The notes under the pieces: model-generated | What the model was told of the DNA's origin: nothing | Seen by the model: the letters and a program-made list of their open reading frames with translations, nothing else | Database searches by the model: none | Position numbers and translations under genes: made by a program | IMG/VR virus record: IMGVR_UViG_3300031994_000034 | DNA length: 64,000 nt | Direction: 5' to 3' (one strand) | Source of the DNA: a virus | Part shown: piece by piece, positions 5,824-58,830 of the stretch | Layout of the letters: every line of letters begins with the position of its first letter | Position numbering within the stretch: position 1 is the first letter of the stretch

Positions 5824-7647
5824 ATGACTATGTTGAAGAATAAGAATCGCGGCGGCATACCCGTACATCACCCAAGGGACATGAAGGAGTTCCGCGAACT
5901 CAATCAGTCGCTCAACCAAAGGCGGTACATCGCCATCGACGCGCTGAGACCGGGACTGCTACACAGCATTACGCTGGGCGACCGCGACACGTCGGAGACA
6001 CAGGCGCAGGACATGGCAACGTGCATGGGCGCCAGGGGCACCATCAGCAACGGCCCCCTGGCAAAGGTGGCATGGTCGTTCGACAGCAGCGAGAAGACAC
6101 CCACTACCATCAGCAAAGACGGCAAACCGCTGGGACGCGGATACATCAAGTGGGGCGCTGGAGACAACCTGCCCTCACAGATTTACGCGCTCTCGAAGGC
6201 ACTTCCATACACGGCGGCTCCGCTCCGCTATCTCTCCGACCTCGCCACGGGGCTGGGCGTGCGGATGATGTACCAGTTTGAGGACGACACGATGTGTCTC
6301 TACGAACATGCCGGCTACCGCATCCTGCAACGCATTGAGGCGCTGAAGAAGGACGAGCCACAGGACACCTACGGCGGCTACTTCGCCCAGGATCCCGACT
6401 CGCAGCGCATCGTGCCCATCGGCGAACTGGACAAGGAGAAACGTCCCGATCCGCTGCTGCGTGGCATAGGCATCGACTACTGGCGGGATGCCTACCGCGA
6501 ATGGCAGCGCACATGGGAGGGCGAGGACACCACCTACGCAGATGGCACACCGCGACACATTCCCGGACTGCGCGAGTTCCTGGAGAATAACGACCTCGAC
6601 CTGAACTTTCTGCAGTGCATGAAAGAAGATCAAATGTTCGACCTCTACTTCCCCACCGTGGGCTTCGAGCGTGGCCGGCGCGGACAGTGGGACCCCCGCA
6701 TCGTGCGCATCGGTTTCCTCAGCATCGTGCATGGTGGCATCCGCTACGAGGTGATGAACGAGTACCGTCACATTCAGAACATCTACTTCGGCGAGAAGTT
6801 CCGTGGCAACACCTTGACGGAGGGGCACACCGTGAGCGGAAAGGACGAGGACGTGGTGATGTACCCCGTAGCTGAAGCCACTCGCCGACTGGAGGAATGG
6901 CGCTACCAGGTGGAGTCGAACCAGCGCACACGCATCAAGGACCGCCCCGTATGGGTGACATGCCCCATCTACTACGGCACGCAGAATTATTACCAGCAGC
7001 CAGACTGGTGGAGCATCATCCTCTCCAAAGCTTACGACTTCTCATCGACCATCCTTTTTGACAAGGCCAAGCAGCGTGAAAACTCAACTTCGTGGGGAAA
7101 AATCATCTATATCTCGCTCGACTACCTCAATATGATTTTTGCCGACGAAGGCATTGAGGGCGACAAGGAAAAGCAGCGGAAGTTCATCGACGAACTGGAC
7201 CAGAACGTAGAGCAGTTCCTGCAGCGCAGGGAGAACAACGGTAAAATGATGCGCCAGTTCATGTGGCTGGGTCAGGACGAGAAGGAACACCACAACATCG
7301 AGATCGTGGATGTGGCTCAGACGAAGAGCGACACGACCAAGGCGGGCAAAGAGGAGCTGGAACTCTCCACCTCGCCCATCTTCCTCGCCTTCGGCGTTGA
7401 TCCTCGCGATATCGGTGTGCCGATGGTCAGTGCCTCCAACGGCGGCACGGCACTCCGCGAGATACGCCTGATGAAGCAGCAACTGCTCAACGTGCGCCAA
7501 CGTGCCTACCTGCGCTTCCTCCGCGATGTCTGCACGTTCAACCGCTACGACCGCCATTGCCGCCCCGTGGTGATGCAGCAGACGTTCACGACGCTGGATG
7601 CCTCGAAGACGGGGACGAAGGAGACCGTGGCCGGAGAGGGAGCATGA
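5824..7647 (+). CDS. Portal protein candidate (607 aa)
   Basis: Portal-like size and a late-type promoter. The segment YIKWGAGDNLPSQIYALSKALPYTAAPL resembles the WG-DN-P N-terminal motif I recall from some portals (weak, from memory). Confidence 0.4.
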   Translation: MTMLKNKNRGGIPVHHPRDMKEFRELNQSLNQRRYIAIDALRPGLLHSITLGDRDTSETQAQDMATCMGARGTISNGPLAKVAWSFDSSEKTPTTISKDGKPLGRGYIKWGAGDNLPSQIYALSKALPYTAAPLRYLSDLATGLGVRMMYQFEDDTMCLYEHAGYRILQRIEALKKDEPQDTYGGYFAQDPDSQRIVPIGELDKEKRPDPLLRGIGIDYWRDAYREWQRTWEGEDTTYADGTPRHIPGLREFLENNDLDLNFLQCMKEDQMFDLYFPTVGFERGRRGQWDPRIVRIGFLSIVHGGIRYEVMNEYRHIQNIYFGEKFRGNTLTEGHTVSGKDEDVVMYPVAEATRRLEEWRYQVESNQRTRIKDRPVWVTCPIYYGTQNYYQQPDWWSIILSKAYDFSSTILFDKAKQRENSTSWGKIIYISLDYLNMIFADEGIEGDKEKQRKFIDELDQNVEQFLQRRENNGKMMRQFMWLGQDEKEHHNIEIVDVAQTKSDTTKAGKEELELSTSPIFLAFGVDPRDIGVPMVSASNGGTALREIRLMKQQLLNVRQRAYLRFLRDVCTFNRYDRHCRPVVMQQTFTTLDASKTGTKETVAGEGA

Positions 7648-12004: not shown

Positions 12005-12193
12005 ATGACTATGCTGAAACCGCAAGACATAAGGATTGGCGACTACCTGCTGGCTGCCGATAAGGTAATAGACGGCGGGCGGTGCAGGGTTGACAACATC
12101 ATATTGAACTGGTTAATAAAAAGGAGTAATGATTATGGAACAACTGAAGATTTACGCTGCAACGCTGGAGGAATCGGCACAGCAGCAGATTGA
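12005..12193 (+). CDS. Possible small ORF (62 aa)
   Basis: Has the ATGACTATG start seen elsewhere in this module, but it overlaps the rtcB start by about 60 nt. Confidence 0.3.
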   Translation: MTMLKPQDIRIGDYLLAADKVIDGGRCRVDNIILNWLIKRSNDYGTTEDLRCNAGGIGTAAD

Positions 12194-13361
12194 TGACATG
12201 AGCAGGAGCGAGGCTTACAAGGACTGCACCATCCGCATCATGCCGGACTGCCATGCCGGGGCGGGCTGTACCATCGGCACGGTGATTGCCATCGGCGACC
12301 GCATCGTGCCAAACACCGTGGGCGTGGACATCGGCTGCGGTATGTTGGTGGTGCGGCTCGGCAAGGCCGATATTGACCTGCATCGGCTCGACAAGGTGGT
12401 GAATGAGAAGATACCCTCCGGCTTTAATATCCACGAGAAGCCTGTGCGAGAGATGGCGTTTCTCGACCGCTTCCATTGCCGCGAAGCCATCGACACCGAC
12501 ATGGCAAAGCGCAGCATCGGCTCGCTCGGAGGTGGCAACCACTTCATCGAGGTGGATGAGGGAAGTGACGGTGAGAAGTACCTGGTCATCCACTCCGGCA
12601 GTCGTAACCTCGGCAAGCGCGTCTGCGAATACTGGCAGCGCAGGGCTGAGGATTACTGCAAGCGGCTTGGCTACGACGAGCAGGAAATCATTGCACGGCT
12701 GAAAGTGGAAGGACGTCAGCAGGAAATCGCCGCTGCCATCAAGGAGGCTAAGAACAGTGCGCCGAAAGTCGGCAAGGACTTGGCTTTCATCGAGGGCGAG
12801 GATGCCGAAAAGTATCTCTACGACATGCAGCTGTGCCAGTTGTACGCCGACGAGAATCGTCGCGCTATGGCCCGAATTATCTGCGACGAAATGGGGTGGA
12901 TGCTTACGAGCATGAATAACTTTACCACCATCCATAACTACATCGACATCCGCCACCGCATCCTGCGCAAGGGTGCCGTGAGAGCTCTCAACGGTGAGCA
13001 ACTGATTATCCCCATGAACATGCGCGACGGCTCGCTGCTCTGCGAGGGAAAGGGAAACATCGACTGGCTCTACTCGGCTCCGCACGGTGCAGGTCGGTTG
13101 ATGTCGCGCAAGCAAGCCATCAGCAGTCTCTCGATGGATGAGTTTCGCCACGAGATGCAGAACGTATATAGCACGTCGGTATGTCCCGAAACCATCGACG
13201 AAAGTCCGATGGTCTATAAGCCCATGCAGGAAATTGTCAGCCAGATAGCCGACACAGTGAAAATCATCGACATCATCAAGCCCATCTACAACTTTAAGGC
13301 AAAGATACCAGAGAAACCCGACTGGAAAGCAAATAGGCATAAACTGAAGAAGGAGGAATGA
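12129..13361 (+). CDS. rtcB: RNA ligase RtcB
   Basis: MPDCHAGAGCTIGTV, GVDIGCGM, GGGNHFIE, HSGSRNLG and SAPHGAGR motifs; 410 aa. The start could be ATG 12135. Confidence 0.9.
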   Translation: MIMEQLKIYAATLEESAQQQIDDMSRSEAYKDCTIRIMPDCHAGAGCTIGTVIAIGDRIVPNTVGVDIGCGMLVVRLGKADIDLHRLDKVVNEKIPSGFNIHEKPVREMAFLDRFHCREAIDTDMAKRSIGSLGGGNHFIEVDEGSDGEKYLVIHSGSRNLGKRVCEYWQRRAEDYCKRLGYDEQEIIARLKVEGRQQEIAAAIKEAKNSAPKVGKDLAFIEGEDAEKYLYDMQLCQLYADENRRAMARIICDEMGWMLTSMNNFTTIHNYIDIRHRILRKGAVRALNGEQLIIPMNMRDGSLLCEGKGNIDWLYSAPHGAGRLMSRKQAISSLSMDEFRHEMQNVYSTSVCPETIDESPMVYKPMQEIVSQIADTVKIIDIIKPIYNFKAKIPEKPDWKANRHKLKKEE

Positions 13362-15837: not shown

Positions 15838-16623
15838 ATGGGACTGATAACAAAGAATGAGGCGGCAAGAATCCTCGGGCGTTCTGAGCGGGCCATCGAC
15901 GAATGGATAGCCCAAGGCGTACTGAAGACGCACTTGGTGAAGCAGACGAGATACATCGACGGCGACACGGTGGATGCGCTGAAGGACACGGAGGCCGACA
16001 TCACTCATGCGATGCAGGAGCGACAGAAGACGCTCGACGCAATAAAGGAGGAGACGTCGGCTCTCCGCCAGAGAGAGAACTTCAACAAATGGTCTGTCCG
16101 TGAGGCCGTCATGGCATTCGTTGCTGCGCTGGACGTGCTTAACGACGGGGAAAAGCAGGTGCTCGTCGGCGTAATGGAAGGATGTTCATACGAAAGCATA
16201 GGCGAGGATTTCTGCGTGACCCGCGAACGGGTGCGCCAGATATTCTACAAAGCCTTGCGGAGGGTGTCGGTCTCGATGGGGTCGTATCGCCGGATGCTGA
16301 ACGAGACGATAGAACTGCGCCGCCTGCGCGACGAGGTGAAGGAGAAGGACAGGGAGCTGCGACAGCTCCGTAAGATGCTGAACGTGCAGGAGCAGGATCG
16401 CGAAAAGTGTAAGTTAATGAGCACGGAACTTGTCGATATGGACCTGAGTGTGCGGACGATAAACTGTCTGAAGTCGGCTGATATATGCACCGTTGGCGAA
16501 TTGGTGCAATGTAAAAAGCTGGAGCTGCTGAAAATTCGCAACTTCGGAAAGAAGTCACTCAGTGAACTCGACGAACTCCTGGACCGGCTCGGCCTGGAAT
16601 GGGGCGCGAGAGCGGTGAACTGA
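15838..16623 (+). CDS. Transcription factor: HTH + sigma-70 region-4-like HTH + RpoA alpha-CTD-like domain
   Basis: [21 protein letters not shown]; [39 protein letters not shown]; [46 protein letters not shown]. Confidence 0.6.
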
Positions 16624-18825: not shown

Positions 18826-19713
18826 ATGACACCAGACATTATCATCAACGGCAAGGCCCTCTACACCACGAAGGGTGCGGCACGGGAGTACGGACGCATA
18901 GGCTGCAACTTCTACACGGGTTGCCCGCATGAATGCACCTATTGTTACCTGAAGCGTGGTGCGCCGTCGAAGCAGCTGGGCGGGAATGAGGTTCGCCTGA
19001 AGGCGTGCTTCGAGAACGAGTTCCATGCCGTCAAGATACTGCAACAGGAAATGGACAGGTGGATAGAACCCTGTCGCAAGTACGGCATTTTCCTCTCATT
19101 TACTACAGACCCAATGATAGATGAAACGCAAGGGCTGACTTGTGCTGCCATCTTTGCTGCAATCCTGCGGGACATCCCCGTGTGGGTGCTGACAAAGAGT
19201 TCTACCTTTACCTACAACACACTTGTCATGGCATACCTCGAAGGCATAGACCCCGACAAGCGGCCAAGCATCCACTTCGGCTTCACGCTCACAGGACACG
19301 ACGAGATGGAGCCCCGTGCGAGCACCAACGACAACCGCATCATGGCAATGCGGCGGATGGACCTTATGGGCTTTTCCACCTTCGCCAGTATCGAGCCTGT
19401 CATTACGTGGGAGGCTGCCGAGAGGATGGTACGCGGATCTGTCCTGTGGTGCGACCACTACAAACTCGGTCTGCGCAGCGGCGTGAAGAAGGACTACTAC
19501 GACATCACTGAGAGTGGTGCCGCCATCCAGCGCATCGTGCGGACGGTGGAAAGCTTCGGCAAGACCATCTATCTGAAGGAGAGCACCCGCCGACTGCTCA
19601 GGCAATACTTCCAGCCAGGTGCCTACGAAGCCTTCCTCTCGCACACCGTGGATATGGAAGGGAAGCGGATTGAATTGTGTAAACACGAATTACTCACGAA
19701 TTATCATAAATAA
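18826..19713 (+). CDS. Radical SAM protein (SplB / DNA-photolyase-like family candidate)
   Basis: FYTGCPHECTYCY (CxxxCxxC) near the N-terminus. Confidence 0.6.
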   Translation: MTPDIIINGKALYTTKGAAREYGRIGCNFYTGCPHECTYCYLKRGAPSKQLGGNEVRLKACFENEFHAVKILQQEMDRWIEPCRKYGIFLSFTTDPMIDETQGLTCAAIFAAILRDIPVWVLTKSSTFTYNTLVMAYLEGIDPDKRPSIHFGFTLTGHDEMEPRASTNDNRIMAMRRMDLMGFSTFASIEPVITWEAAERMVRGSVLWCDHYKLGLRSGVKKDYYDITESGAAIQRIVRTVESFGKTIYLKESTRRLLRQYFQPGAYEAFLSHTVDMEGKRIELCKHELLTNYHK

Positions 19714-22093: not shown

Positions 22094-22885
22094 ATGCTCA
22101 TAAAACTGACAAGCAAATGCACGATGATGTGCCCTCACTGCATGGAGGACGCACAGCCCGAAGGCCTGATGATGACGCTCGACACGTTTAAGCAGGCCGT
22201 GAAGTTCGGCATATACATTGGCAACAGGCACTTAGTCTTGTCGGGCGGCGAACCGACGGAGAACGCACACATCACGGAAATGTGCGAATGGCTCGACATA
22301 GCTACGGGCTGCTACTTCACCATCGTGTCAAACGGCATGTGGCTGAAGGACGAGACGAAGCGGCAGCGTGTGGACTGGATTACCCGGCTGCACCACTACC
22401 TCGGTATGCAGGTCTATACGAACCGCCAGTGGTACCGTGACTACGACTATGTGGTAAGCCACCGCCACGAATACGAGCAGTATCGCAAGGTCATCGTGGA
22501 CATCGCCGACACCATCTTCATGCTGGATATCGGACGGGCGCGAACCAACCCCGAAGCACAGCGCGAGGTGGAGCGCAACCCGCACTTCATGTCGTGCCTG
22601 AACACCACGCTGTCTGCCATCCAGATAGCCGAGCCGCAGATGTTCGGCATCACGATGATGCTACACAACCAGTTCTGCAAGCCGTCGGTCGATTGCGAGG
22701 GCAACGTCCACATGTCCGAGAGCCGCCTCTGCCCGTCGGTGGGCAACGTGAACACCGACAACTTCGCCGACATCTGGCAGCGTATGCGGGCCTTCCGTCC
22801 GTGCGGCCACTGCAGGCAATACAAGAAATTCATGGAAAGCAAACGCCCCGACATCGCCGCCGCCAGGAGGGTGATGGGAGTGTAG
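22094..22885 (+). CDS. Radical SAM protein
   Basis: LTSKCTMMCPHCM (CxxxCxxC), SGGEPT, and a C-terminal Cys cluster CPSVGNV...CGHC. Confidence 0.7.
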   Translation: MLIKLTSKCTMMCPHCMEDAQPEGLMMTLDTFKQAVKFGIYIGNRHLVLSGGEPTENAHITEMCEWLDIATGCYFTIVSNGMWLKDETKRQRVDWITRLHHYLGMQVYTNRQWYRDYDYVVSHRHEYEQYRKVIVDIADTIFMLDIGRARTNPEAQREVERNPHFMSCLNTTLSAIQIAEPQMFGITMMLHNQFCKPSVDCEGNVHMSESRLCPSVGNVNTDNFADIWQRMRAFRPCGHCRQYKKFMESKRPDIAAARRVMGV

Positions 22886-25419: not shown

Positions 25420-26415
25420 ATGACTATCGGACTTGTTGACATTGACGGACACGCCAAGAAGAAGAAATGGGGCGCGACGGTTTATCCGAACCTTGCGCTG
25501 TGCAAGATTGCGCGGTGGCACAAGCAGCAGGGCGACGAGGTGGAGTGGGCTGTGCCGTTCCTGCACTACGACGTGGTGTATATGGCGAAGGTGTTCAACT
25601 TCTCGCCCGACGACCTGACCTACTACGATGCCGACCGCATCGTGCGGGGTGGCACGGGCTACGACATCCACAGCCAACTGCCCGACGAAATAGACCGGCT
25701 GCAGCCTGACTACTCCATCTATCCGCTCATCCCGAAGGACACCGCCTACGGGTTCCTCACCCGTGGCTGCCCGAACCGTTGCCCGTGGTGCGTCGTGCCT
25801 CGCAAGGAGGGCAAGATTCGTCCCTATATGGACTGCGACGAGATTGCCATCGAGGGACGCACGAAGCTGGTGCTGATGGATAACAACATCCTTGCGGCGG
25901 GAGACTATGCCATTGAGCAGCTGGAGAAAATCATCCATCGTGGCTACCGTGTGGACTTCAACCAGGCCCTCGATGCCCGACTGGTCGATGACCGCTTTGC
26001 CCGTCTGCTGGCACAGGTCAAGTGGATAGACCGGCGCATCCGTTTCGGTTGTGACACGCACGGACAGATTGCCGAGTGCGAACGTGCCATCAGCCTAATC
26101 AACAGCTACGGCTACCGTGGCGAATACTTCCTCTACACGATGATTGGCGGCAAGTCCGACTTCCGCGAATCGTTCGAGCGTGTCAACTACTGGTGGCAGC
26201 GCAATCAGGAACTACGACGAAACCACAAACCAAACATCTACGCATACGCACAGCCTTATCGTGACCCCGACAATCCGCATAGTCCCATCCCTCAATGGCA
26301 AAAAGACATGGCAGGTTGGGTCAACAAAAGGGCCCACTTCGTTGCCCACAGCTTCGAGGACTTCGAGCCCCGCAAAGGTTTCCGCTGTGAGTGGTACGTG
26401 AAGAATCTGATGTGA
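25420..26415 (+). CDS. Radical SAM protein
   Basis: FLTRGCPNRCPWCVVP (CxxxCxxC) about 115 aa from the N-terminus. Confidence 0.6.
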   Translation: MTIGLVDIDGHAKKKKWGATVYPNLALCKIARWHKQQGDEVEWAVPFLHYDVVYMAKVFNFSPDDLTYYDADRIVRGGTGYDIHSQLPDEIDRLQPDYSIYPLIPKDTAYGFLTRGCPNRCPWCVVPRKEGKIRPYMDCDEIAIEGRTKLVLMDNNILAAGDYAIEQLEKIIHRGYRVDFNQALDARLVDDRFARLLAQVKWIDRRIRFGCDTHGQIAECERAISLINSYGYRGEYFLYTMIGGKSDFRESFERVNYWWQRNQELRRNHKPNIYAYAQPYRDPDNPHSPIPQWQKDMAGWVNKRAHFVAHSFEDFEPRKGFRCEWYVKNLM

Positions 26416-27615: not shown

Positions 27616-29565
27616 TCACCTCGGTATTCCCGCCAAGTTTCCGAACCTTCCTCTCAGTCGTCCACCGATGTTGTGCTTGCCTTCGGCACATTCCCTGATG
27701 CCAATGAGCAGGTCATCGAAGGCGTCGGTGATGGTGGTGCGCTGGCGTTTGTCACCGCCTATGCCTTCTTCCGAGGTCAGTTTCTCCGTACCTTTGTACT
27801 TGCGGAACGTGCCTGGCACAACGGCGGTGTTTTCGAGTGCTGCCCGCAGATAGACACAACGCCCTGCTTCGCGGTTGATGAAGACGCTGGGCGATGCCTG
27901 ACCTGAGAAGCAGTCGTTGACGTACTGGTACTTGCGTTCGTGCCGCCACGATGTGAACTCTGCCCGCGTCACCTTGAAGCCGTAACCGGTCAGTTCGTCG
28001 GTCACTACGATATCGAAGCGCGACTGTTCCGATTCCTCCAGTGCGTAGGCTTTGTTGGCTCCCTGCTTGATGCTGCTGGCGACGTAGAAAATCACTTCCT
28101 TGCAACCACGACGCAGGAAGGGACGGTAATACTGTGCAAAGAGTTTCGACAGGCCACGCAGACGCACGCCGTCCTGCACGAAGAACTCCTTCATTACCAG
28201 CAGTGACGGTTTGCCTTGGAAGATGCGCCTCTGTCCGACTACGAAGCAGTTGATGTCCGAATTGGCATCCAGTGCTAAGCACAGGGGTTCTTTGTAGTCG
28301 AGGTCGAGGTCCAGACTGCAATCTTCGCCGTCGTGCTGTAACTGGTCCCATTCGAGCGATTCCGTCTCGAAGTCTGTAGGCCACCGCTGTCCGTCGAGCG
28401 CACGTCCTTTGACGCGGGTGCTGTACTTGTCGAATACGAGGTCGGTGATTTCTTCGCTGACGTAGGTGTTCAGTTCGGAGAAGTTGCAGTAGAAGCCGTC
28501 CTTGGCCGAACCGCGAGGCTGATTGAGGATTTGCAGACGGAAGAGCAGGTCGGGCAGTTCGCGTTGCATCTGACGAATCCATGCCTCCCCTCCCAACAAG
28601 GCTGCGTTCTCGATGCTGGAGAAACGCCAGAAGGTTTCGGACTGTGTGCGCAGGGCGTAGAGTTTGCGCAGGTAGTCCTCGCTCTGTGCCAGCCGTGCCG
28701 CGAAGTTGGTGTGGTGCTCCTTGTCGTAGAGTTCGGCATACCGCACCTCAGCCATCATTTCCTCTATCTTTCGGTTGACATCGGTGGTCTCATACTCCGC
28801 CTCCTTTTCCCAGAGGCATTCACGGGCGTTCAGTCCTGCATCGCTCACCCAGAGTTGCGAGAGCCATTTGTTGTTCATCTTCGGGTCGGTGCCGTAGCCC
28901 CATCGTTTCTGCTCGGTCTTGCGATACGCCTTGGGCAGGAAGTCGCCACGCAGGGTAGGCAGCACTTCCTCCTTCACGCGCTGCCACGGCATATACTTCG
29001 TCTCGTCGCCCATAATGGCCGCAAGGTTCAGGCCATTGGCAGATCCCTTGACTGCGAGTGAAATCATCTGCCAGACAAAGCCGTTGGCAAACGATACGCA
29101 ATTCTCCCACACCCTCGGCTTTGCCAGCGGCGTAGGCCATCTGAGACGGGCAGGCGGACGGCCAAGGAAGTAATGCACGCCCTCTACGAAACCCAGCAGA
29201 TTCATCACCTTCAGCACGTTGGGCATCGTGCGCGTGTAATTCTGCTTGGCACTGGCTCCGCAGAAACCGCCCATCATGCGGGCCAGTCCGATGGTCACGT
29301 CGGCCATGTTGAATGCCAGGAACGCCGACTTGCCCGTACCGCGTCCTGCCAATACCTTGGTGGAGCGTGAGCCGAAGTTGCGGACTTTCTTCTGCCACGG
29401 AGCCATATACACCGTGTTGCGCTTGTCGCCCTGGTAGTCGATGTATTCGCCATCCTCGCCGCAGTCCTCGTTGGCATGTCCGGGCTTGTAGTCCTCCACG
29501 TTGGGGAGCATCCGCGACTCAAACAGATCGCTGCTGTTGTTGGGGTTACTGCCTATTCTTGACAT
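27616..29565 (-). CDS. terL: Terminase large subunit
   Basis: 649 aa. P-loop VLAGRGTGKSAFLAF about 75 aa from the N-terminus. Confidence 0.75.
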   Translation of the reverse strand: MSRIGSNPNNSSDLFESRMLPNVEDYKPGHANEDCGEDGEYIDYQGDKRNTVYMAPWQKKVRNFGSRSTKVLAGRGTGKSAFLAFNMADVTIGLARMMGGFCGASAKQNYTRTMPNVLKVMNLLGFVEGVHYFLGRPPARLRWPTPLAKPRVWENCVSFANGFVWQMISLAVKGSANGLNLAAIMGDETKYMPWQRVKEEVLPTLRGDFLPKAYRKTEQKRWGYGTDPKMNNKWLSQLWVSDAGLNARECLWEKEAEYETTDVNRKIEEMMAEVRYAELYDKEHHTNFAARLAQSEDYLRKLYALRTQSETFWRFSSIENAALLGGEAWIRQMQRELPDLLFRLQILNQPRGSAKDGFYCNFSELNTYVSEEITDLVFDKYSTRVKGRALDGQRWPTDFETESLEWDQLQHDGEDCSLDLDLDYKEPLCLALDANSDINCFVVGQRRIFQGKPSLLVMKEFFVQDGVRLRGLSKLFAQYYRPFLRRGCKEVIFYVASSIKQGANKAYALEESEQSRFDIVVTDELTGYGFKVTRAEFTSWRHERKYQYVNDCFSGQASPSVFINREAGRCVYLRAALENTAVVPGTFRKYKGTEKLTSEEGIGGDKRQRTTITDAFDDLLIGIRECAEGKHNIGGRLRGRFGNLAGIPR

Positions 29566-36798: not shown

Positions 36799-37635
36799 AT
36801 GGCAAAAAAACAACGAACACACCAGCTACGTCACATCGTAGCCGTGTCAAACAACAAAGGCGGAGCCGGCAAGACCAGCACCGTCCTGAACCTCGCATCG
36901 GCCATCAGCCGGCGCATCGAAGGTTACAGAGTCCTCGTCATCGACTGTGACCCGCAGCGCAACCTCTCCTACTTCCTCGGTTGGGACGACCGACGCGAAC
37001 TGGATGGCTCCCCCACCCTCTACACCGCCCTGTGCAACGAACAGCAGGGGCTTCCAGTCTATCGTGCCGACAACGGCCTGTACTACACTCCGGCCTCCGT
37101 CAACCTGAACGGTATCGACGCCATTCTTTCCCTGCGTCCCAATCCCAGCAAAGCACTGAAGGAAATCCTTTCAAGACCCATCGACAACCGTACCGATGGT
37201 ACTGTGCTCAGCGATTCTGTCGCTGAGAGTTTCGACTTCATCTTCATCGACACCCAGCCCGCCATGTCGCGCATGACCTATAACGCCCTCTACGCTGCAG
37301 ACGGCTACATCATCCCCACAGAACTGGAAGAGGCCAGCGTCAAGGGTATGGCCAACATCGCCGTAGCCGCAGGTAAGGTGGGAGCCGACACGGGCAACCT
37401 CACCATCCACGGTATCCTTATTACCAAACTCGACGCCAAGCTGCGCTCCGCCAAACTCTATGAGCCGCAAATCCGCCAGTCGTTCCGCGAAACCTTCCAG
37501 ACGGCCATCCGCCGCTCCAAGGACATCATCGAGAGTCAAGCCCTCCGCGAGGACGTGTTCACCACCTACTCCGGCGGTCGTGCTGCAGAAGACTATACCG
37601 CCCTCGCCACCGAGTATCTGAGAAAGTTCGCTTAA
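36799..37635 (+). CDS. parA: ParA/Soj-type partition ATPase
   Basis: Deviant Walker A VSNNKGGAGKTSTVLNLA, VIDCDPQ; 278 aa. Confidence 0.85.
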   Translation: MAKKQRTHQLRHIVAVSNNKGGAGKTSTVLNLASAISRRIEGYRVLVIDCDPQRNLSYFLGWDDRRELDGSPTLYTALCNEQQGLPVYRADNGLYYTPASVNLNGIDAILSLRPNPSKALKEILSRPIDNRTDGTVLSDSVAESFDFIFIDTQPAMSRMTYNALYAADGYIIPTELEEASVKGMANIAVAAGKVGADTGNLTIHGILITKLDAKLRSAKLYEPQIRQSFRETFQTAIRRSKDIIESQALREDVFTTYSGGRAAEDYTALATEYLRKFA

Positions 37636-41330: not shown

Positions 41331-42845
41331 ATGGGAAGAAAAAAGAAAGAGAAGAGTATCACCGTAGGTATCTCCGACCTCATCTACCAGCCGCACAAGA
41401 TGTCGCGTCTGCCGGCGCTCGACAGTCGCGTGGCCTCGCGCACCATCCTTGCCATCCTGCAACGTCTGCAGGGACTCTTCGCCCTGGCCCGTGCTCAGGA
41501 ACGCGACCCGCAGCTTTATCTGAAGTTCGAGACCGACCAGTTCGAGGTGAAGAAGTCGGCCACCAGCAGCTTCGAGCGTGGCGACGTGTTGTTTAACCTC
41601 TCCCTCTCCGACATCGCCGAGCCCAACCACTACCCGGAGGTCCGTGCCGCTCTGAAGGGACTGGAGCACGTCAAGGTACTCGTGCCTGTCAAGGAGGAAC
41701 CGGGCAAATACCGCACCTCCTCGCTCATGGACATCAAGGGAGAATACGATGCCGACGGCAATCTCATCGGTACCAACTTCTCCGTTATCGTACCCCGCAT
41801 CACCGCCGAGAACATCCTCGACATCAACCTCCTTGGTGGGTTTAGCAGATTCTTACTTTTCACCGCTTCACAGTTCCGCAGCGACTACGGCTACACGCTC
41901 TACATCCGCCTCTCCGACGAATGGCGCCGCTATGGCGACGTCTTCGAGATAGGCTACGAGGATCTGCGTCAGAACATGGGCTTCGTCCTGGAGAAAGAGG
42001 AATACAAGGACAAGGACGGAAAGGTTAAGGAGCGCATCATCGACCACACCAAGAAGCACGCCTCCTGGTCGCTCTTCTGCCGCTACGTCCTCAACCAGGC
42101 ACAGGAGGAACTGCAGATGATGGCCGATCGCCAGCCGCCCGTCACCGACTTCACCTTCTCCTACGAAGGCCTGCTCAACGGTCAGCCTTTGCCTAAGTAC
42201 AAGCGGCCCGACGCCATCCGCTTCACCATCCACCCCACCGCCGTAGGTCGCAAGTTGGCTGCCGATACGGCCTTCTCTGCCCAGAGCATTCAGGCTCGTC
42301 GCATGATGACTGACATCTTCGGTCTCACTGAAGGCCAGGCTCGCACCTTTATGCGCCGCGTCACCCCCGACAATGTGGGCGACCTCCTGCGTGTGATGCA
42401 GCAACTCCAGTCTGACCTCGATGCCGGACGCCGCAAGGCCAACAACCGCACCGCCGTTGCAGTCGATGAGATAAAGAAGTTCCTCAATAAGCAAAAAGAG
42501 GATGCCATCATAGAAGCCGAGGAGGTACCGACTACTCAGTGTAATCCGACTATTCCTCCGGCTACTCAGAGTGTAGAATCCGAGACCGTCGCCTCTCCCG
42601 ACTCCCGCTGGCAGCAGTTCATCGACCAGGTGCTCGCCGACTGCCCCACCGACAACGATCGCGCCATGCTCGGCCCTTTCCTCCGCGAAAGAATCTGTCA
42701 GGCCGTCTTTGCCGACGACACCCTCGCCCTCACCGTCGGCACCCAAGCCTCCTACGACTGGTTCCGTGACTCCTACGGCTCCTTCTTTGCCAAGGAAAGA
42801 GAAAAGCACCTGCCCGGCATTGAGATAAAATTTTTCCTCGACTAA
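41331..42845 (+). CDS. Replication initiator candidate (504 aa)
   Basis: Directly downstream of the iterons, with its own TACCTTTG promoter (41292-41299). SDYGYTLYIRLSDEW is reminiscent of RepB/Rep_3-type initiators (weak). Confidence 0.5.
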   Translation: MGRKKKEKSITVGISDLIYQPHKMSRLPALDSRVASRTILAILQRLQGLFALARAQERDPQLYLKFETDQFEVKKSATSSFERGDVLFNLSLSDIAEPNHYPEVRAALKGLEHVKVLVPVKEEPGKYRTSSLMDIKGEYDADGNLIGTNFSVIVPRITAENILDINLLGGFSRFLLFTASQFRSDYGYTLYIRLSDEWRRYGDVFEIGYEDLRQNMGFVLEKEEYKDKDGKVKERIIDHTKKHASWSLFCRYVLNQAQEELQMMADRQPPVTDFTFSYEGLLNGQPLPKYKRPDAIRFTIHPTAVGRKLAADTAFSAQSIQARRMMTDIFGLTEGQARTFMRRVTPDNVGDLLRVMQQLQSDLDAGRRKANNRTAVAVDEIKKFLNKQKEDAIIEAEEVPTTQCNPTIPPATQSVESETVASPDSRWQQFIDQVLADCPTDNDRAMLGPFLRERICQAVFADDTLALTVGTQASYDWFRDSYGSFFAKEREKHLPGIEIKFFLD

Positions 42846-49774: not shown

Positions 49775-49975
49775 CACACGGTGGGCAAGCCTGCTAATCG
49801 CGCGAGTCCACGCGCAGGAAAAAATGAACTTTTTTTAACATCGTAGATGATTAAAAAAAGTCAATTTTGCGGACCGACCCCAAATTTGGAAAACCGATGT
49901 TCCGTGTCGTATATTTGCACTCGGTAACTCGCCACTGACGGCGAAGCCACAAACTCTCAAAATTCAAATCGCTTT

Positions 49976-50989
49976 ATGGCAACACGTAACGACAAGCGCA
50001 ATGGCGCAAACAACGCAACTCACGAGAACATGAACGCTGCAACGCAGCAAGTTGAGAACCGCAAGAACGGCAAGGCTCCTGCTGCCCCTACGCCCCAGGA
50101 TGGCACCCCCGTACCCGCAAAGCTCGAAGAGCTCGAAGCACGTCTGACCGAGAAGACCACCGCCCTTAACGAAGTTAAGAAGCAGTCGCAGAAGCTGTCC
50201 GAGAAACTCGCTAAAGCGAGAGAGGACGCTGACAACCAGCGTTACTGCGTAGCAGTAAGTCGTCAGAACTTGGGCACGGCTACGGAAGACGACCTCGCCA
50301 TCATCGCCAGCCGTAAGGCTGAGAACAACACGGCCGAGGGTTTGGCAAAGTTCTTTGCCAAGGAGTTCAAGGATAGCGACGAAGTCGCTAAGGCTCGTGA
50401 GGATGTCCGTGCCGAGGAGGGCTCTCTCGCTTCGGCTATAGCCGAAACCACTCGCCAGTGGAACAACGGCTACGCCGTTCTCTACGGCTCTATCGGCATG
50501 AACAAGCAGAGCTTGAAGTCCATCCCAACCCTGCTGAAATCGGCGGGTTTTAACCCCTTCCTCCAAGTTGCCACTGCCGACGGCCTAAAGGCCGCTACGG
50601 TCACTCGGACAGCCGTCCGCAAGAACGGCAAAGCCGTCAAGAAGGACGGCAAGAGGGTGTATAGATACACCCTCAGAGAGCGGACCAAGTGGTCGGCCTA
50701 TGGTCTCTTCGAGACTATAGAGCGCAACTTCCGGATGGCCGATGTGTACACCGAGGACGAACTGAAAGTTCGTATCGAACTCCTCAACACCCAAGTCAGT
50801 GCCCTAAAGGCACTGAAGAAGGCCAAGGAGGATGCCAAGTCGGACGTCCCCGAGGTAGCGGCTAAAGCCGCCGAGAGCGAGAAGGCTCTGGCCGATGCTG
50901 CTGAAGCAGCAGGTAAGGCCGTCAAGGAGAACACCAACGCCACCACCCAGCACACCACCAAAGGTGGTAAGGCCGAGAAGGTCGCTTAA
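49976..50989 (+). CDS. Hypothetical protein (337 aa), charged/coiled-coil rich
   Basis: ctttATGGCAACA start after the TATATTTG promoter (49910-49917). Confidence 0.65.
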   Translation: MATRNDKRNGANNATHENMNAATQQVENRKNGKAPAAPTPQDGTPVPAKLEELEARLTEKTTALNEVKKQSQKLSEKLAKAREDADNQRYCVAVSRQNLGTATEDDLAIIASRKAENNTAEGLAKFFAKEFKDSDEVAKAREDVRAEEGSLASAIAETTRQWNNGYAVLYGSIGMNKQSLKSIPTLLKSAGFNPFLQVATADGLKAATVTRTAVRKNGKAVKKDGKRVYRYTLRERTKWSAYGLFETIERNFRMADVYTEDELKVRIELLNTQVSALKALKKAKEDAKSDVPEVAAKAAESEKALADAAEAAGKAVKENTNATTQHTTKGGKAEKVA

Positions 50990-52040
50990 CGGCCTATAGG
51001 CCGCAGGGCTTACCGCAGTCGGTGCGGCTAACCCCAAGGGGTTAGGGTCGGTCCGAATCCGACTTGCCCACAATCCTGCACCCATAACGAGGCGTCTGCC
51101 TCGTTCAGCAGGCCGACGAGTTCCATCGGTTTCCCTTCGGGAAAGAGTGAAACCGAGCCTCCTGCCCCTAAAGGGGAGCCTCTTTAAGAGGTCGAGCCAA
51201 GTGCCCAGGCTGCTCCGACCTAAGGTCGGGTGGTGGATGGCTAAGACCATTGAACCCTATCAGGGTTCACAGTAGCGAAGCTGCTGCCTTGCTCTTTGAA
51301 ATGTTGAACGGCTTGTATCCCTGCGTTCCTTATTGGGCGAGCTTTGTCTGGTAGGGAGTTCCGCCAAGAGTCTATCAAGGTTGGCGGTATTGGGTGAAGT
51401 GTAAACAGGACGATGTGTCTATACGGCACGATACGACGGACGGCCATGCGCGGTAGTGGTGGCATAGGACGAGCCAGTAATGGCTCGGAGTAAAGACCCT
51501 ATCGGCATAAAGCAGCCGGACTAAAATGAGCGTATTGTGGACTGGAGATGCTACTGGACTGCACTTGCGAACTGTCGCAGGGTGGGGTGTCATCGGGAAC
51601 GGTGGCATGAGCGCCATACAAGTACGGACGGTGGGAGAGACCACAGAGTGACTGAGACGCTATACGGCTGGGTAGCGGGTGAACACGAGAGCGGTATGGG
51701 CAGTAGGAGACCTCGGCTATAAGACAGCGGTATGCCAACCTATTGGCGGTAATGAGTAGGCGGCGGGCAGTATTGCAACCCCGCGCTATCAAGTAGGAGC
51801 AATCGGCAATTTTGGACGTTACCAAGAATTGACGGAGGAGGAGTGCGAAATGGCGGAAGTCCGCCTGTCTGCACATAGCCGCACAAGTCTGTGAGGCACG
51901 CGAATCTCAACGCTGGGCACGGGTGTCCGGCGCGACTTGGCTATTGGCAACAAGACAGCGGACGGAATGGGCTATTATGGGCGTGCTATGCATCTGCGTA
52001 GTTTCGCTTGGGGTTCGAGTCCCCACACCCCACAAACGGA
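50990..52040 (+). ncRNA. Candidate large structured RNA (~1 kb) ending in a T-arm-like hairpin
   Basis: No credible ORF. A dense series of short perfect hairpins. TGGGG-TTCGAGT-CCCCA at 52009-52025. CACCCCAC 52026-52033 is complementary to GTGGGGTG 51582-51589. Confidence 0.4.
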
Positions 52041-52137
52041 ATTTTGAGTCTGCTATGGGCGGTCGTCGTGACGACGTTTGGCTATCTGCACGCCCATATT
52101 GTGCGAACATTATTATCCACACTATAAAGTTAAAACG

Positions 52138-52335
52138 ATGGCAAGAGAAACCACTATCGGGAAAGTACACGAAGGAGACTTTGTGCGCTTTCGTGACACC
52201 GACACGGCTCCCGTGTGGGTGCGCCAACACTACGACCGCAGCAGCCGGACCTATTCGCTCTGCAAGTACGACGATGCTAACCACGAGCGTTTCTGCAAGG
52301 GGACGCAAAAATGTTACGTCGATTTCGACTTCTGA
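52138..52335 (+). CDS. Hypothetical protein (65 aa)
   Basis: acgATGGCAAGA start context. Confidence 0.55.
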   Translation: MARETTIGKVHEGDFVRFRDTDTAPVWVRQHYDRSSRTYSLCKYDDANHERFCKGTQKCYVDFDF

Positions 52336-52338
52336 CCT

Positions 52339-52500
52339 ATGGCTATTGTACTTGAACTGCGCCCGAAGTATCAGGAACTGCGGGCGAAGGAAACCTACAC
52401 TCGCGAGGAAGTCTTGGACATCCTCTGCGAGTTTGCGAAATCTGTCTATCCCGACATCGCACCTGAACGCATTCGGGAAATCGTTATCAACAACTTCTAA
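52339..52500 (+). CDS. Small hypothetical protein (53 aa), below the track threshold
   Basis: My translation: MAIVLELRPKYQELRAKETYTREEVLDILCEFAKSVYPDIAPERIREIVINNF*. ctATGGCT start, 3-nt gap. Confidence 0.5.
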   Translation: MAIVLELRPKYQELRAKETYTREEVLDILCEFAKSVYPDIAPERIREIVINNF

Positions 52501-54819: not shown

Positions 54820-55770
54820 ATGGCAAACCCAAGAGTGTATGTTGGTACTTATGGCAAGTACAACCGTGGCTCGCTGGCCGGTGGTTGGCTGAGTCTGAAA
54901 GAATGCAAGGACTATCAGGACTTCCTGCGGAAATGTGGCAGACTGCATCGCGGGGAGCACGACCCTGAGTTTATGATACAGGACTGCGAGGACTTCCCAG
55001 ACGGGCTGAATTGCGGCGAGTGGCTATCGGAGCAGGATTTCAAGGATGTTATCGCCGCCTGCGAGGAGGAAGAGCGGCAGGAGTCTGTAGCCGACCGGTT
55101 GCGGGTCGCCCTGCGTGAACGTCTGAAGGCCGACGGCAAGGCTGTCCCTGCTGATGACGAGCAGACGCTGCTGGAGGAATACATGAAGGAGTACGAGAAG
55201 GTGTGGCCCGACGACAAGTCGATGCTGGACTATTGCCGCAAGGAGTTCTCGGGTGCCGTGCGCCTGCAGAACGGCGGCATCCTCTATTTCGAGAAGCCGA
55301 GCATCAAGACGGAGTTTTGCTTCGGCTATTCCACCTGCGGACAGGGCGCAGAGTATGACGAGGCGAACAATGCGGCGCGGTCGGCGAGGACGGAGGGCTA
55401 CTTCCTGCACGCCAACCTGGACGAGATGGACGAGCGCATCCGTGCGCTGGAACTGAACTGTTGCTATCCCGAAGGGGAGTGGAATGGCACCTACGACAAC
55501 CTAACGTGGTACATTCAGCGGAAGAGCTATTGCAGCCAAAAGGAGGAACTGAACTTGTTCGAGTTCCGCGCCTGGCGCGAATACGACGTGGAGAACGAGC
55601 CGTGGCGATACACGCCGGGCAGTTACGAGAAGATGTCGGACGCCGACCGCATGACTATCCTCGGCGGCATGAAGCGTGAGCGAGAGAAGTTCGAGAAGCG
55701 GCTGCGTGCCTATCTGAAACGCTACGGCACCACGAAGCTACGCACATGGACCTACTGGCTGGACGAATAG
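54820..55770 (+). CDS. ArdA-like antirestriction protein candidate (316 aa)
   Basis: N-terminus VYVGTYGKYNRGSLAGGWLSL...EFMIQDCEDFP, compared from memory with Tn916 ArdA VYIANLGKYNEGELVGAW. Confidence 0.5.
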   Translation: MANPRVYVGTYGKYNRGSLAGGWLSLKECKDYQDFLRKCGRLHRGEHDPEFMIQDCEDFPDGLNCGEWLSEQDFKDVIAACEEEERQESVADRLRVALRERLKADGKAVPADDEQTLLEEYMKEYEKVWPDDKSMLDYCRKEFSGAVRLQNGGILYFEKPSIKTEFCFGYSTCGQGAEYDEANNAARSARTEGYFLHANLDEMDERIRALELNCCYPEGEWNGTYDNLTWYIQRKSYCSQKEELNLFEFRAWREYDVENEPWRYTPGSYEKMSDADRMTILGGMKREREKFEKRLRAYLKRYGTTKLRTWTYWLDE

Positions 55771-56933: not shown

Positions 56934-57061
56934 GTGACTTTTTCAATGCACAGTTCATAATGCATAATTCATAATTAAATCAGTCTCGCAGAAATCGCGG
57001 ATATACGCAGAAACATTTCCTCTATTTCCGCTATTTCTGCGGGACATAAACGAAACGAACT

Positions 57062-57226
57062 ATGGCAAGCATGTATGTGACTATACGCATCGACTATGAT
57101 GCACCCATCGAGACGGACATGGAGACTATCGCAGGGATGGTGTGCGAACGGGCTAACGCTCACAATCACACCATCGAGGATGGCGTGACGATCGAGAATG
57201 TGGAACTATGTGGGATTAACGAATAA
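57062..57226 (+). CDS. Small ORF (54 aa) immediately upstream of the RT, below the track threshold
   Basis: My translation: MASMYVTIRIDYDAPIETDMETIAGMVCERANAHNHTIEDGVTIENVELCGINE*. aactATGGCAAGC start context. Confidence 0.5.
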   Translation: MASMYVTIRIDYDAPIETDMETIAGMVCERANAHNHTIEDGVTIENVELCGINE

Positions 57227-57237
57227 AGCAAGAAACT

Positions 57238-58830
57238 ATGGACAAGATATTATCAATGTTTTTCGAGGCAGGGCGGTGGGAATACGCCATTGCCAAGGGT
57301 GTGGGTAAGGACGTTCCGAAGAACGTGTTGTACCAACTATGCAAGCCAGAAGTGCGGATGCAGATGTACGAGGCTATCCGCACGGGACAGTACGAGATTG
57401 CACCGCCACATACGGCACTTATCCCGAAGGATACGCCAGGCGAGTTCCGCACGGTGTATGTGAACGAGGCAGCTGACCGTGTGCTGCTATCCATTGCCAA
57501 CGACCTGCTGTTTGAGTTGATGCCAGACAGGGTGCATCCGCGTTGCAAGTCGTACTTGAAAGGTGTTGGTTGTGGGAGGATAGTGCAGGAAGTCAGTACG
57601 GCCATCCTTGCGGCAAAACCGCAAGGTACAGAGAAATTGGGCTGGAAGAGCGACCTGAGTAAGTATTTCGACTCGGTACCTATCCGATTCATAGATGCTG
57701 CCTTCGACATGGTAGAGGAACGGCACGGACATTCGGCCCTGATCGATGTACTGCGAAAGTATTACCATGCCGACCTCTATTTCACTCCCGATGGGGTGCT
57801 GGAAAGCAAGTACCAAAGTCTGAAGCAGGGTTGCTCGGTGGCATCGTGGCTGGCCGACGTCTTACTCTATCACATCGACGAGCGACTGACTAAGTTGAAC
57901 GGCTATTACGTCCGCTATTCGGACGATATGCTCTTTATCGGGCCGGATGCAGAGCAGGCTATGCAGGTCCTCACGGAGGAACTGGCAGCTATGGAAATGC
58001 GGCTCAACCCTAAGAAGGTGGAGTGGCTGGACGAGCGGCACTGGTTTAAGTTCCTGGGCTTCTCTATCCGTGGCAAGGACATCAGTCTGAGCAGTACGAG
58101 AATCAAGACGTTTCAGAGGGAGATTGAGAACAGGACAGTGAAAAGTGGAAAATCTAAGTTCACAATCACTTCGGCTCTCAACTCCGTGAACCGCTATCTG
58201 TATCGTGGCGACGGACAGGGGCATTCGTGGGCAACGCAAGTGCTGCCTATCGTGAACGTAAGACAGGACATCGCCACGCTGAACCTGTTCGTGATGGACT
58301 GTCTGCGGGCTGCCTGTACGGGCAAGACGAAAGTGGGCGGTCTGGGCTATGACAAGCAGGGTAGGGACGGCTGCATCGTCCGTGGCAGGGGCAGGAATGT
58401 GAGTGCCAACCGCAGGAAGACGGGCGACGACATCGGCGGCTATCTGTCGCTGAGCTGTATGCAGAACGCGATGCGGACGAGCAAGGCGGCGTATGACTCG
58501 CTGGTGCGCTCACTCAACTTCTCGCAGAAAACGCAGAAAGCGCAGAAATCTGATGCTACGAGCATCGAGGAACTGGAGGCGGCGTATGCGGTGTATAAGC
58601 ACTCCATTCCGAGCGAAAGGACGATGGGGCGTGTGCCTCGCTTCTATGCGCTGCCCGAAAGCGAGTTGAGCAATGACGATATGCTCTATGGCGTTCCCCG
58701 TGAACAGGCGGAGCGCGAATTGGAGAAGGTGCTGGCAGGGTTCACGATGCCTGAAGGGGCAGGGTGGTTCTGGCAGAGCGAGAACGACAAGGACTTGGTG
58801 GTGCTGCGCTCATGGTGCAGTGCCGCATAG
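57238..58830 (+). CDS. Reverse transcriptase (530 aa), stand-alone, with ~200-aa C-terminal extension
   Basis: IPKDTPGEFRTVYV, ADRVLLSIAN, GWKSDLSKYFDSVP, SLKQGCSVASWLADVLL, YYVRYSDDMLFIG, RLNPKKVEW, WFKFLGFSI. Confidence 0.9.
   Translation: MDKILSMFFEAGRWEYAIAKGVGKDVPKNVLYQLCKPEVRMQMYEAIRTGQYEIAPPHTALIPKDTPGEFRTVYVNEAADRVLLSIANDLLFELMPDRVHPRCKSYLKGVGCGRIVQEVSTAILAAKPQGTEKLGWKSDLSKYFDSVPIRFIDAAFDMVEERHGHSALIDVLRKYYHADLYFTPDGVLESKYQSLKQGCSVASWLADVLLYHIDERLTKLNGYYVRYSDDMLFIGPDAEQAMQVLTEELAAMEMRLNPKKVEWLDERHWFKFLGFSIRGKDISLSSTRIKTFQREIENRTVKSGKSKFTITSALNSVNRYLYRGDGQGHSWATQVLPIVNVRQDIATLNLFVMDCLRAACTGKTKVGGLGYDKQGRDGCIVRGRGRNVSANRRKTGDDIGGYLSLSCMQNAMRTSKAAYDSLVRSLNFSQKTQKAQKSDATSIEELEAAYAVYKHSIPSERTMGRVPRFYALPESELSNDDMLYGVPREQAERELEKVLAGFTMPEGAGWFWQSENDKDLVVLRSWCSAA

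Follow-up and report, generated by a model that had tools for sequence, protein, structure and literature searches.

A conserved RNA structure with tRNA-like parts, strictly linked to one gene, in a plasmid- or phage-plasmid-like element suggested to come from rumen Bacteroidales: a candidate large modular non-coding RNA

What does a 1.1-kb stretch of DNA specify that is free of convincing genes and crowded with hairpins? This question is raised by positions 50990–52137 of the virus record IMGVR_UViG_3300031994_000034 from IMG/VR, a sequence of 64,000 nucleotides whose full length is referred to here as the window. A first-pass annotation made from this sequence had proposed the segment as a candidate large non-coding RNA (ncRNA). 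Comparison of 19 distinct homologous loci showed that this proposal was largely right, as the segment specifies a structured non-coding RNA on the plus strand, but that the segment is composite rather than uniform: a 320-nt 5′ domain common to all loci is followed by an extension that differs between lineages and by a small conserved module of its own. The account preferred here, to which a probability of roughly 55% is assigned as a whole and including the processing steps proposed below, is that the plus strand from about 50990 to 52033 encodes a large modular structured ncRNA of an uncatalogued class. All features of this locus that are described in the following lie on the plus strand.

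In each of the 19 loci the RNA begins right after the stop codon of the same gene, which in the window encodes a protein of 337 amino acids (49976–50989) and is always located immediately upstream. Relatives of this gene were found on IMG/VR contigs of 55–144 kb, which IMG/VR classifies as viral. A gapped DNA pattern composed of three invariant blocks retrieved further copies from viral, metagenome, and genome collections, one of them on a 122-kb contig of the rumen metagenome-assembled genome RUG14659 (“uncultured Bacteroidales”). Ten divergent members of the protein family were also fetched, and wherever the contig was long enough, a gene-free gap of 0.55–1.3 kb directly followed the gene. 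One locus matched by the gapped pattern (L105) was rejected as a chance match in coding DNA, and a search with a single 15-mer DNA word was discarded because its approximately 100 loci were mostly chance matches. The search for related loci that started from the protein alignment recovered only an already known contig, and no similar DNA was found when the segment was compared by BLAST with phage and plasmid collections.

The strongest evidence for an RNA comes from the 5′ domain (50986–51312). A covariance model (R1) was built from nine sequences and located this domain right behind the stop codon of the gene in every one of the 19 loci, with scores of 187–346 bits. In the subsequent model-based alignment of all 19 sequences, 95.1% of the cells formed standard pairs, as compared to 29–49% when the pairing partners were slid by one to three columns, and 38 of the 77 pairs had changed on both sides (7–12 in the slid controls). 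The observed pairing values were reached by none of 500 column shuffles. Compensatory changes occurred repeatedly in a T-arm, a D-like arm, a closed “anticodon” arm, and three 3′ hairpins. The greater part of the domain is a conserved multi-helix core of approximately 245 nt with long-range helices (51070–51312, model R1). One long-range core helix covaries among the loci between CCUG/CAGG, CUCG/CGAG, and CCCU/AGGG; variation in a long-range helix (C51079–C51082 with G51232–G51235) is by G-U changes only. The core furthermore carries hairpins with GNRA and UUCG tetraloops as well as near-invariant single-stranded strings (UUCCCUnCGGGAAAGA, GAGCCAAGUGCC, GCUCCGACC..GGUCGGGUGGUGG, and UGCUCUUUGA). 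Both strands of a candidate pseudoknot, AAAGAG/CUCUUU, are near-invariant, and the two variants observed break the pairing. The conserved G-U pairs indicate an RNA on the plus strand. The 5′ domain is a conserved, strand-specific RNA structure that is strictly linked to one gene, and the comparative covariation analysis recommended by the first-pass annotation strongly supported conserved helices in the homologues.

The first approximately 70 nt of the segment, whose nature had been overlooked in the first-pass annotation, resemble a tRNA. Directly after the stop codon lies a hairpin (H0; CGGCC-TATA-GGCCG, 50990–51003), which is stable in 12 of 19 loci and weak or absent in seven, and the stem of which covaries (CGGCC/GGCCG, CGGCT/AGCCG, CAGCC/GGCTG, CTACC/GGTAG). 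It is followed by a tRNA-like module (51006–51069; helices 1–4 of the alignment, with two to six double-sided pairs each) that comprises an acceptor-like stem (GGGC/GCCC, 51006–09/51066–69), a D-like arm (CCGCA-GTCGG-TGCGG, 51013–27), a closed 7-bp tetraloop hairpin in place of the anticodon arm (51028–45), and a T-arm (GUCGG-UCCGAAU-CCGAC, 51047–63). All 19 loci retain the top pairs and the loop (GGTYCGAnnCC) of this T-arm, the stem of which covaries, and in most of them the loop has the canonical form GGTTCGAnTCC; nearly all loci have the D-like arm with GG in its loop. The module thus has the GGUUCGAnUCC-type T-loop and the GG-containing D-like arm by which tRNA-like structures are recognized, and its T-arm and D-like arm would together form a tRNA-type elbow. 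It has neither the 7-bp acceptor stem nor the 7-nt anticodon loop of a tRNA and was not recognized by tRNA detection: ARAGORN called no tRNA at the module, and the Rfam tRNA-Sec model scored 21 bits on 50999–51069 as compared to a gathering score of 47.

All hairpins listed in the first-pass annotation, together with a T-arm near the 3′ end and a tail with its complement, were found in the sequence where they had been placed. Besides hairpins at 50991–51002 (GGCCTATAGGCC) and 51028–51045 (CTAACCCC-AA-GGGGTTAG), these are AACGAGGC-GTCT-GCCTCGTT (51088–51107), GGTTTC..GAAACC (51128–51154), CCCC-TAAA-GGGG and CCTCT-TTA-AGAGG, CCGACC-TAA-GGTCGG (51217–51231), GAACCCT-ATC-AGGGTTC (51253–51269), GAGCCA-GTA-ATGGCTC (51473–51488), and GGCGGA-AG-TCCGCC (51853–51866). 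The first 323 nt have a minimum free energy of −139.7 kcal/mol, as compared to −118.6 ± 5.4 kcal/mol for dinucleotide shuffles (z = −3.9, reached by 0 of 100), and for the middle part the fold of the plus strand is approximately 57 kcal/mol more stable than that of the minus strand. Certain short words are enriched on the plus strand of 51250–52140, among them GCGGTA (5 observed, 0.22 expected), GCTAT, and TATTG. They form no repeats and are probably loop and junction motifs that recur in the RNA. An origin of the recurrent GGCTAT and CGGTA words in iterons or tandem repeats was rejected, as no notable repeat family was found.

Could the segment be the remnant of a gene, or could stop codon reassignment conceal a coding region? 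The statement of the first-pass annotation that 50990–52137 contains no plausible open reading frame (ORF) was borne out, since only mechanical ORFs of up to 135 amino acids occur there and none of them is conserved. Two observations could be taken in favor of a coding origin. One minus-strand frame of 51313–52137 is nearly open, with two stops only, and the relatives have minus-strand ORFs of 110–140 amino acids. The open frame is explained by the composition of the plus strand, which is strongly G-rich from about 51250 to 51900, and all three kinds of stop codons are present in each of the six frames of the segment. A six-frame protein comparison with the relatives gave weak, short matches, which were equal across frames and showed no frame-specific conservation. 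It was therefore concluded that there is no hidden or recoded gene and that the conservation is at the nucleotide level. Indels are not multiples of three, and the substitutions compensate each other across helices. The translated comparison across the segment, by which the first-pass annotation had proposed to recognize a degraded gene, revealed no coding signal, and a coding origin is given next to no weight.

The protein encoded upstream belongs to a family of 99 clusters (at 90% identity), all of approximately 320–360 amino acids and none with a Pfam domain; searches of Pfam, PHROGs, NCBIfam, and PADLOC with the 337-aa protein gave no informative match. An AlphaFold2 model (mean predicted local distance difference test score 74) predicts a long coiled coil, a small beta domain, and disordered Lys-rich tails. 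Bacteroides-type promoters contain the box TAnnTTTG, and a candidate Bacteroidota-type −7 box of this kind (TATATTTG, 49910–49917) precedes the gene in the window. Eleven of 15 loci have a box 55–68 nt upstream of the ATG of the gene, and a twelfth locus, L104, has it at −30. In 13 of the 15 loci, the region that extends from the ATG to a point 1.3 kb beyond the RNA domain is free of such boxes. This distribution suggests that the gene and the RNA belong to a single transcription unit, co-transcribed from the putative TAnnTTTG promoter. The box also fits a Bacteroidales host.

Downstream of the 5′ domain the loci differ. A lineage-specific extension designated type A (51313–52008, or approximately 720 nt to 52033 with the 3′ T-arm) is recognized by shared conserved blocks and common to eight loci (the window, L115, L130, L001, L137, L104, L135, and L139). 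Its block 51624–51763 is 84–86% identical to L001, L104, L135, L137, and L139, where the adjacent protein is approximately 58% identical; for the block 51832–51990 the identity is approximately 73%. A further insertion of approximately 230 nt is present in the extension of L001, L104, and other relatives. In an RNAalifold structure of the extension with 122 pairs, which was derived from the same eight-sequence alignment that was used for the pair counts and to whose covariation approximately four independent lineages contribute, 95.4% of the cells were paired (36–44% in slid controls) and 29 pairs had changed on both sides (at most eight in slid controls). Seven loci, designated type B, contain a different block of approximately 250 nt, which has covarying hairpins of its own and precedes a conserved gene for a protein of approximately 100 amino acids, and three loci (L003, L140, L134) have unrelated sequence in place of the extension. 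L130 has kept the first half of the window's extension and differs in the second. The type B gene was located at approximately 7590–7890 in L002, 1863–2168 in L136, 1778–2086 in L141, 2232–2582 in L142, and 5425–5808 in L138; its product begins with MATLKDLCS... and has an Arg/Lys-rich, Cys-containing C-terminus.

The extension ends in a second T-arm, UGGGG-UUCGAGU-CCCCA (DNA TGGGG-TTCGAGT-CCCCA, 52009–52025), after which CAC and CCCAC follow to 52033. A T-arm closes the extension in 11 of 18 loci, including three with unrelated intervening sequence, and its stems covary (UGGGG/CCCCA, GUGGG/CCCAC, GGCGG/CCGCC, GGCAG/CUGCC, and others). Upstream of it most loci share the motif GGCTAT(N)ATGGG(C/T)G, and several relatives have the ribosome-binding site of the following gene no more than approximately 25 nt after it.

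This mosaic organization bears on whether the segment yields one RNA or several. Two or more separate RNAs, namely a universal RNA of approximately 320 nt that ends at about 51270–51300, an independent RNA from 51313–52033, and a third element at 52054–52098, are a serious alternative, although clearly less probable than a single molecule. A hairpin at 51270–51287 followed by the U-rich CCUUGCUCUUU scores as terminator-like, so that the 5′ domain could be a separate RNA, and the part after the 5′ domain is swapped wholesale between lineages and half-shared in L130. However, the supposed terminator tail UGCUCUUUGA hardly varies among the 19 loci, which is more conservation than a U-run needs, and its pairing with the first part of the extension is predicted, with helices 1–4 of the extension structure being 100%, 100%, 97%, and 100% paired. 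This predicted pairing of the end of the 5′ domain into the extension argues for one continuous RNA over termination at 51270–51300. Moreover, the 5′ domain and the extension are not separated by a TAnnTTTG box, and the terminator scan used models Bacteroidota terminators poorly.

Between the second T-arm and the next gene lies a separate inverted-repeat module of approximately 46 nt (TATGGGCGG – 28 nt – CGCCCATA, 52054–52098). Its inner hairpin (CGUCG-UGA-CGACG) covaries and its outer arms are invariant. At least ten loci, representing both locus types, contain the module, which in each case directly precedes the next gene. Its candidate roles are those of an operator, a terminator or attenuator, and a small RNA element, and it is treated here as a regulatory module distinct from the large RNA. 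The 65-aa ORF that follows in the window (52138–52335) occurs only there and in the near-identical relative L115; a conserved gene for a 53-aa protein (52339–52500; tblastn matches in 15 loci with 52–100% identity) forms the downstream boundary of the locus in almost all relatives.

The position between two genes raises the possibility that the structure acts in cis, as a 3′ untranslated or intercistronic region that stabilizes the upstream mRNA or controls the small downstream genes, through read-through or translation, in the manner of an attenuator or a processive antiterminator. Such a role would agree with the strict adjacency to the stop codon, with the lack of a promoter box of its own, with the type B block that runs into the start codon of the ~100-aa gene, and with the constant position of the 52054–52098 module just before the next gene. 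Yet a 320-nt domain of 15 helices with long-range helices, single-stranded strings that are near-invariant, and a tRNA-like elbow far exceeds known stabilizers and antiterminators in elaboration, of which put RNA has approximately 70 nt and EAR approximately 120 nt. The stretch that separates the conserved domain from the next gene also differs among loci in sequence and in length (from approximately 230 to approximately 1000 nt), which does not agree well with a direct control of this gene. A purely cis-acting element is therefore regarded as improbable.

Large ornate ncRNAs such as GOLLD and ROOL, to which the first-pass annotation had compared the segment, are found beside tRNA genes or in tRNA islands and assemble into homo-oligomeric nanocages. 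ROOL was discovered in rumen metagenomes as a large multi-junction RNA of phages, prophages, and mobile DNA that is linked to tRNAs (PMC5737381, PMC12286853). GOLLD is phage-associated, has a length of at least approximately 800 nt, and combines a universally conserved 3′ region with a more variable 5′ region, in which tRNAs are sometimes present (PMC12286853). The rumen origin, size, mobile context, and tRNA modules of the new RNA resemble these published descriptions, and could suggest a divergent GOLLD or ROOL or, alternatively, a giant molecule resembling tmRNA or tRNA in which 51582 pairs with 52026 to close the structure. Membership in GOLLD (RF01998) or ROOL (RF03087) was not supported, as their covariance models remained unmatched at all thresholds used. 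With Rfam 15 at gathering scores, no match was obtained in the whole window, and with E ≤ 10 and lax filters none to GOLLD, ROOL, RNase P RNA, or group I or II introns in 50800–52300. The latter scan gave three weak matches only, including an 8.5-bit partial match of the tmRNA model over the 3′ T-arm and its tail and a 13-bit match to a long non-coding RNA within the upstream gene (minus strand). The Rfam scan for tmRNA, RNase P, and group I/II introns suggested by the first-pass annotation hence assigned the segment to no family. Six divergent homologous loci scanned at E ≤ 1 revealed nothing relevant. The tRNA adjacency implied by the comparison was not found either: ARAGORN detected no tRNA in the window and none adjacent to the locus in eight relatives, the only tRNA near relatives being a tRNA-Tyr approximately 7 kb away in L002 and L111. 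ARAGORN also detected no tmRNA in the window or the relatives.

The closing helix on which a giant tmRNA-like molecule would depend is the 8-nt pairing between the tail (CACCCCAC, 52026–52033) and its complement (GTGGGGTG, 51582–51589), which had been pointed out in the first-pass annotation. The complementarity exists in the window but is not conserved in the relatives: for CACCCCAC (52026) and GUGGGGUG (51582), the upstream complement is missing in L001 and L104, and L130 has kept the 5′ strand and differs in the tail. At 51582–51589, covariation favors a local hairpin (helix 18 of the extension structure). RNAalifold instead places a closing helix at 51391–51394/52029–52032, which occurs at the same alignment position in eight related loci and provides a positional hint. 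With the Rfam models unmatched and the polarity of GOLLD reversed, sequence and secondary-structure models already refute membership in GOLLD, ROOL, or tmRNA, and a relationship too distant for these models appears barely conceivable.

The analogy to GOLLD and ROOL as RNAs of mobile elements is nevertheless apt in kind. Like these, the new RNA is longer than 300 nt, non-coding, equipped with covariation-supported helices and junctions, and carried by a mobile element. With ROOL it shares the large, many-junction structure, the rumen origin, the location on mobile DNA, and an association with tRNA; it differs in having built-in tRNA-like modules rather than neighboring tRNA genes, in its strict coupling to one protein gene, in the combination of a universal 5′ domain with a replaceable 3′ part, and in its hosts, which are apparently Bacteroidales rather than mainly Firmicutes. 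As in GOLLD, one half is conserved and one is variable, here with a tRNA-type T-arm at the end of the variable part, but the polarity is reversed, with a conserved 5′ and a variable 3′ half, and its tRNA-like parts, which have no anticodon loop and are ARAGORN-negative, do not constitute functional tRNAs. A long structured body that ends in a T-arm and a short 3′ strand is reminiscent of tmRNA; in contrast to tmRNA, there is no supported acceptor helix and the 5′ tRNA-like module is contiguous instead of split, and neither a G-U identity pair nor a tag reading frame was identified in the new RNA. No description of such an RNA was found in the literature. It is a new class that is analogous to GOLLD and ROOL in kind and not homologous to them at the level of sequence or covariance models.

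tRNA-like structures are known as processing signals or punctuation from MALAT1/mascRNA, from mitochondrial transcripts, and from the action of RNase P on the C4 RNA of phages P1 and P7 and on polycistronic mRNAs. A comparable arrangement exists here, with one module exactly at the junction of mRNA and ncRNA and a second T-arm at the 3′ boundary before the next cistron; it differs in the acceptor-like stem, which is short (4–6 bp) and offset by 2–3 nt, and in that cleavage is inferred. According to the preferred account, the RNA would have no promoter of its own and would be transcribed together with the upstream gene from the conserved TAnnTTTG promoter. The tRNA-like modules may serve as punctuation or boundary signals for the tRNA-processing enzymes of the host: RNase P would cut at the 5′ module and leave an mRNA that ends in hairpin H0, and an RNase Z-type cut or the stop of an exonuclease at the 3′ T-arm would define the other end, releasing a stable RNA of approximately 1 kb. 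The invariant core may be the working part of this molecule, a folded scaffold that could consist of RNA only, as in GOLLD and ROOL, or be bound to a protein such as the adjacent Lys-rich product.

Several points weigh against this account. The acceptor-like stem comprises only 4–6 bp and is separated from the T-stem by a linker of 2–3 nt, which means that the module is not a canonical substrate of RNase P or RNase Z and its recognition is uncertain. No 3′ T-arm was found in 7 of 18 loci, and the closing helix 51391–51394/52029–52032 performed no better than shuffled tails. The 725 nt after the first 323 nt are not unusually stable (z = −0.64 relative to shuffles), their support coming from covariation and not from folding energy, and the alignment behind this covariation has the limits given above; the same side of the balance holds the terminator-like stretch at 51270–51300. 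TAnnTTTG is not enriched window-wide (34 observed, 25 expected), and the model of the 337-aa protein had no informative Foldseek match in PDB or BFVD and thus provides no clue to fold or family. Finally, transcript ends, processing, and stability are inferred.

The genes elsewhere in the window shed light on the element that carries the RNA. A ParA-type partition ATPase (36799–37635, plus strand; domain match) and a weak match to a RepM-like replication initiator (41331–42845, plus strand) suggest that the “viral” contig is a plasmid or phage-plasmid, and the element as a whole appears to be plasmid-like or phage-plasmid-like and to originate from rumen Bacteroidales. Relatives carry PcfJ/PcfK, MutS_I, and HU nearby. 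In the window, the RNA stands at the head of a series of small genes that extends to ArdA (54820–55770, downstream of the RNA), an arrangement that resembles an early or leading region and makes an early role after entry or induction of the element likely. Since leading regions carry hairpins that act as single-stranded DNA (ssDNA) promoters (PMC11541004), the segment might function as DNA in a conjugative or plasmid leading region, be it as an origin of transfer (oriT) or replication, a single-strand initiation site, or a Frpo-like ssDNA promoter. The partition, replication, ArdA, and PcfJ/PcfK genes would suit such an element, and the two strands of the 5′ domain fold about equally well. Many of the conserved G-U pairs would, however, be A-C mismatches on the other strand, and two modules have the RNA-specific T-loop consensus GGUUCGAnUCC along with a D-like partner. 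The structure also contains tetraloops of the GNRA and UUCG types, and it is built from long-range helices and junctions of several stems instead of one long imperfect hairpin. The repeat search found no repeats of the iteron type. A DNA-level element is for these reasons considered very unlikely, and an RNA product remains the preferred reading.

Further genes of the element lie at a greater distance from the RNA. A full-length reverse transcriptase (RT) of the UG27 class with an RTas346-like C-terminal part (57238–58830, plus strand; PADLOC RT_UG27, 691 bits) is preceded by a 300-nt gene-free gap (56934–57237), which could hold the RT's own ncRNA, as in other DRT/UG systems. A homologue of this RT occupies the same relative position in L001. 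Coupling of the large RNA to the UG27 RT was considered and rejected, as the RT is 5 kb away, has its own upstream gap, and is syntenic in L001 without being specifically linked. An RtcB-family RNA ligase (12129–13361, plus strand; Pfam RtcB, 7e-60) is noteworthy beside an RNA with tRNA-like modules, yet it lies 38 kb from it. An unusual 261-aa fusion of a helix-turn-helix domain, sigma-70 region 4, and the C-terminal domain of the RNA polymerase alpha subunit (15838–16623, plus strand) might redirect host transcription. Three radical-SAM/SPASM-type proteins are encoded in a cluster at 18826–19713, 22094–22885, and 25420–26415 (plus strand), one of which corresponds to phrog_9298 (2e-99). Hardly any of the products of the large ORFs, including 2415–5549, 5824–7647, 27616–29565 (minus strand), and 41331–42845, have matches in Pfam, PHROGs, or NCBIfam, which leaves the element largely uncharted.

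Besides rRNA, RNase P RNA, and introns, only a handful of bacterial and phage RNAs that exceed a few hundred nucleotides are known. OLE, GOLLD, ROOL, and raiA have each been structurally surprising, and their functions are unsolved. The class described here would extend this set to another phylum, and rumen and gut metagenomes contain about 100 variants of it that are linked to the gene. As a tentative and more far-reaching idea, less probable than the structural account itself, it may represent a third class of giant ornate RNAs of mobile elements and the first for Bacteroidales, which would be punctuated from an mRNA, assemble through its invariant 5′ core into a higher-order particle, alone or with the Lys-rich coiled-coil protein, that aids establishment of the element or evasion of host defense, and use its replaceable 3′ module as a lineage-specific cargo or specificity domain. 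The built-in tRNA-like modules, the candidate protein partner, and the constant core with a swappable extension offer experimental handles that GOLLD and ROOL lack, and the locus may be a case of tRNA-type punctuation in the operon of a bacterial mobile element.

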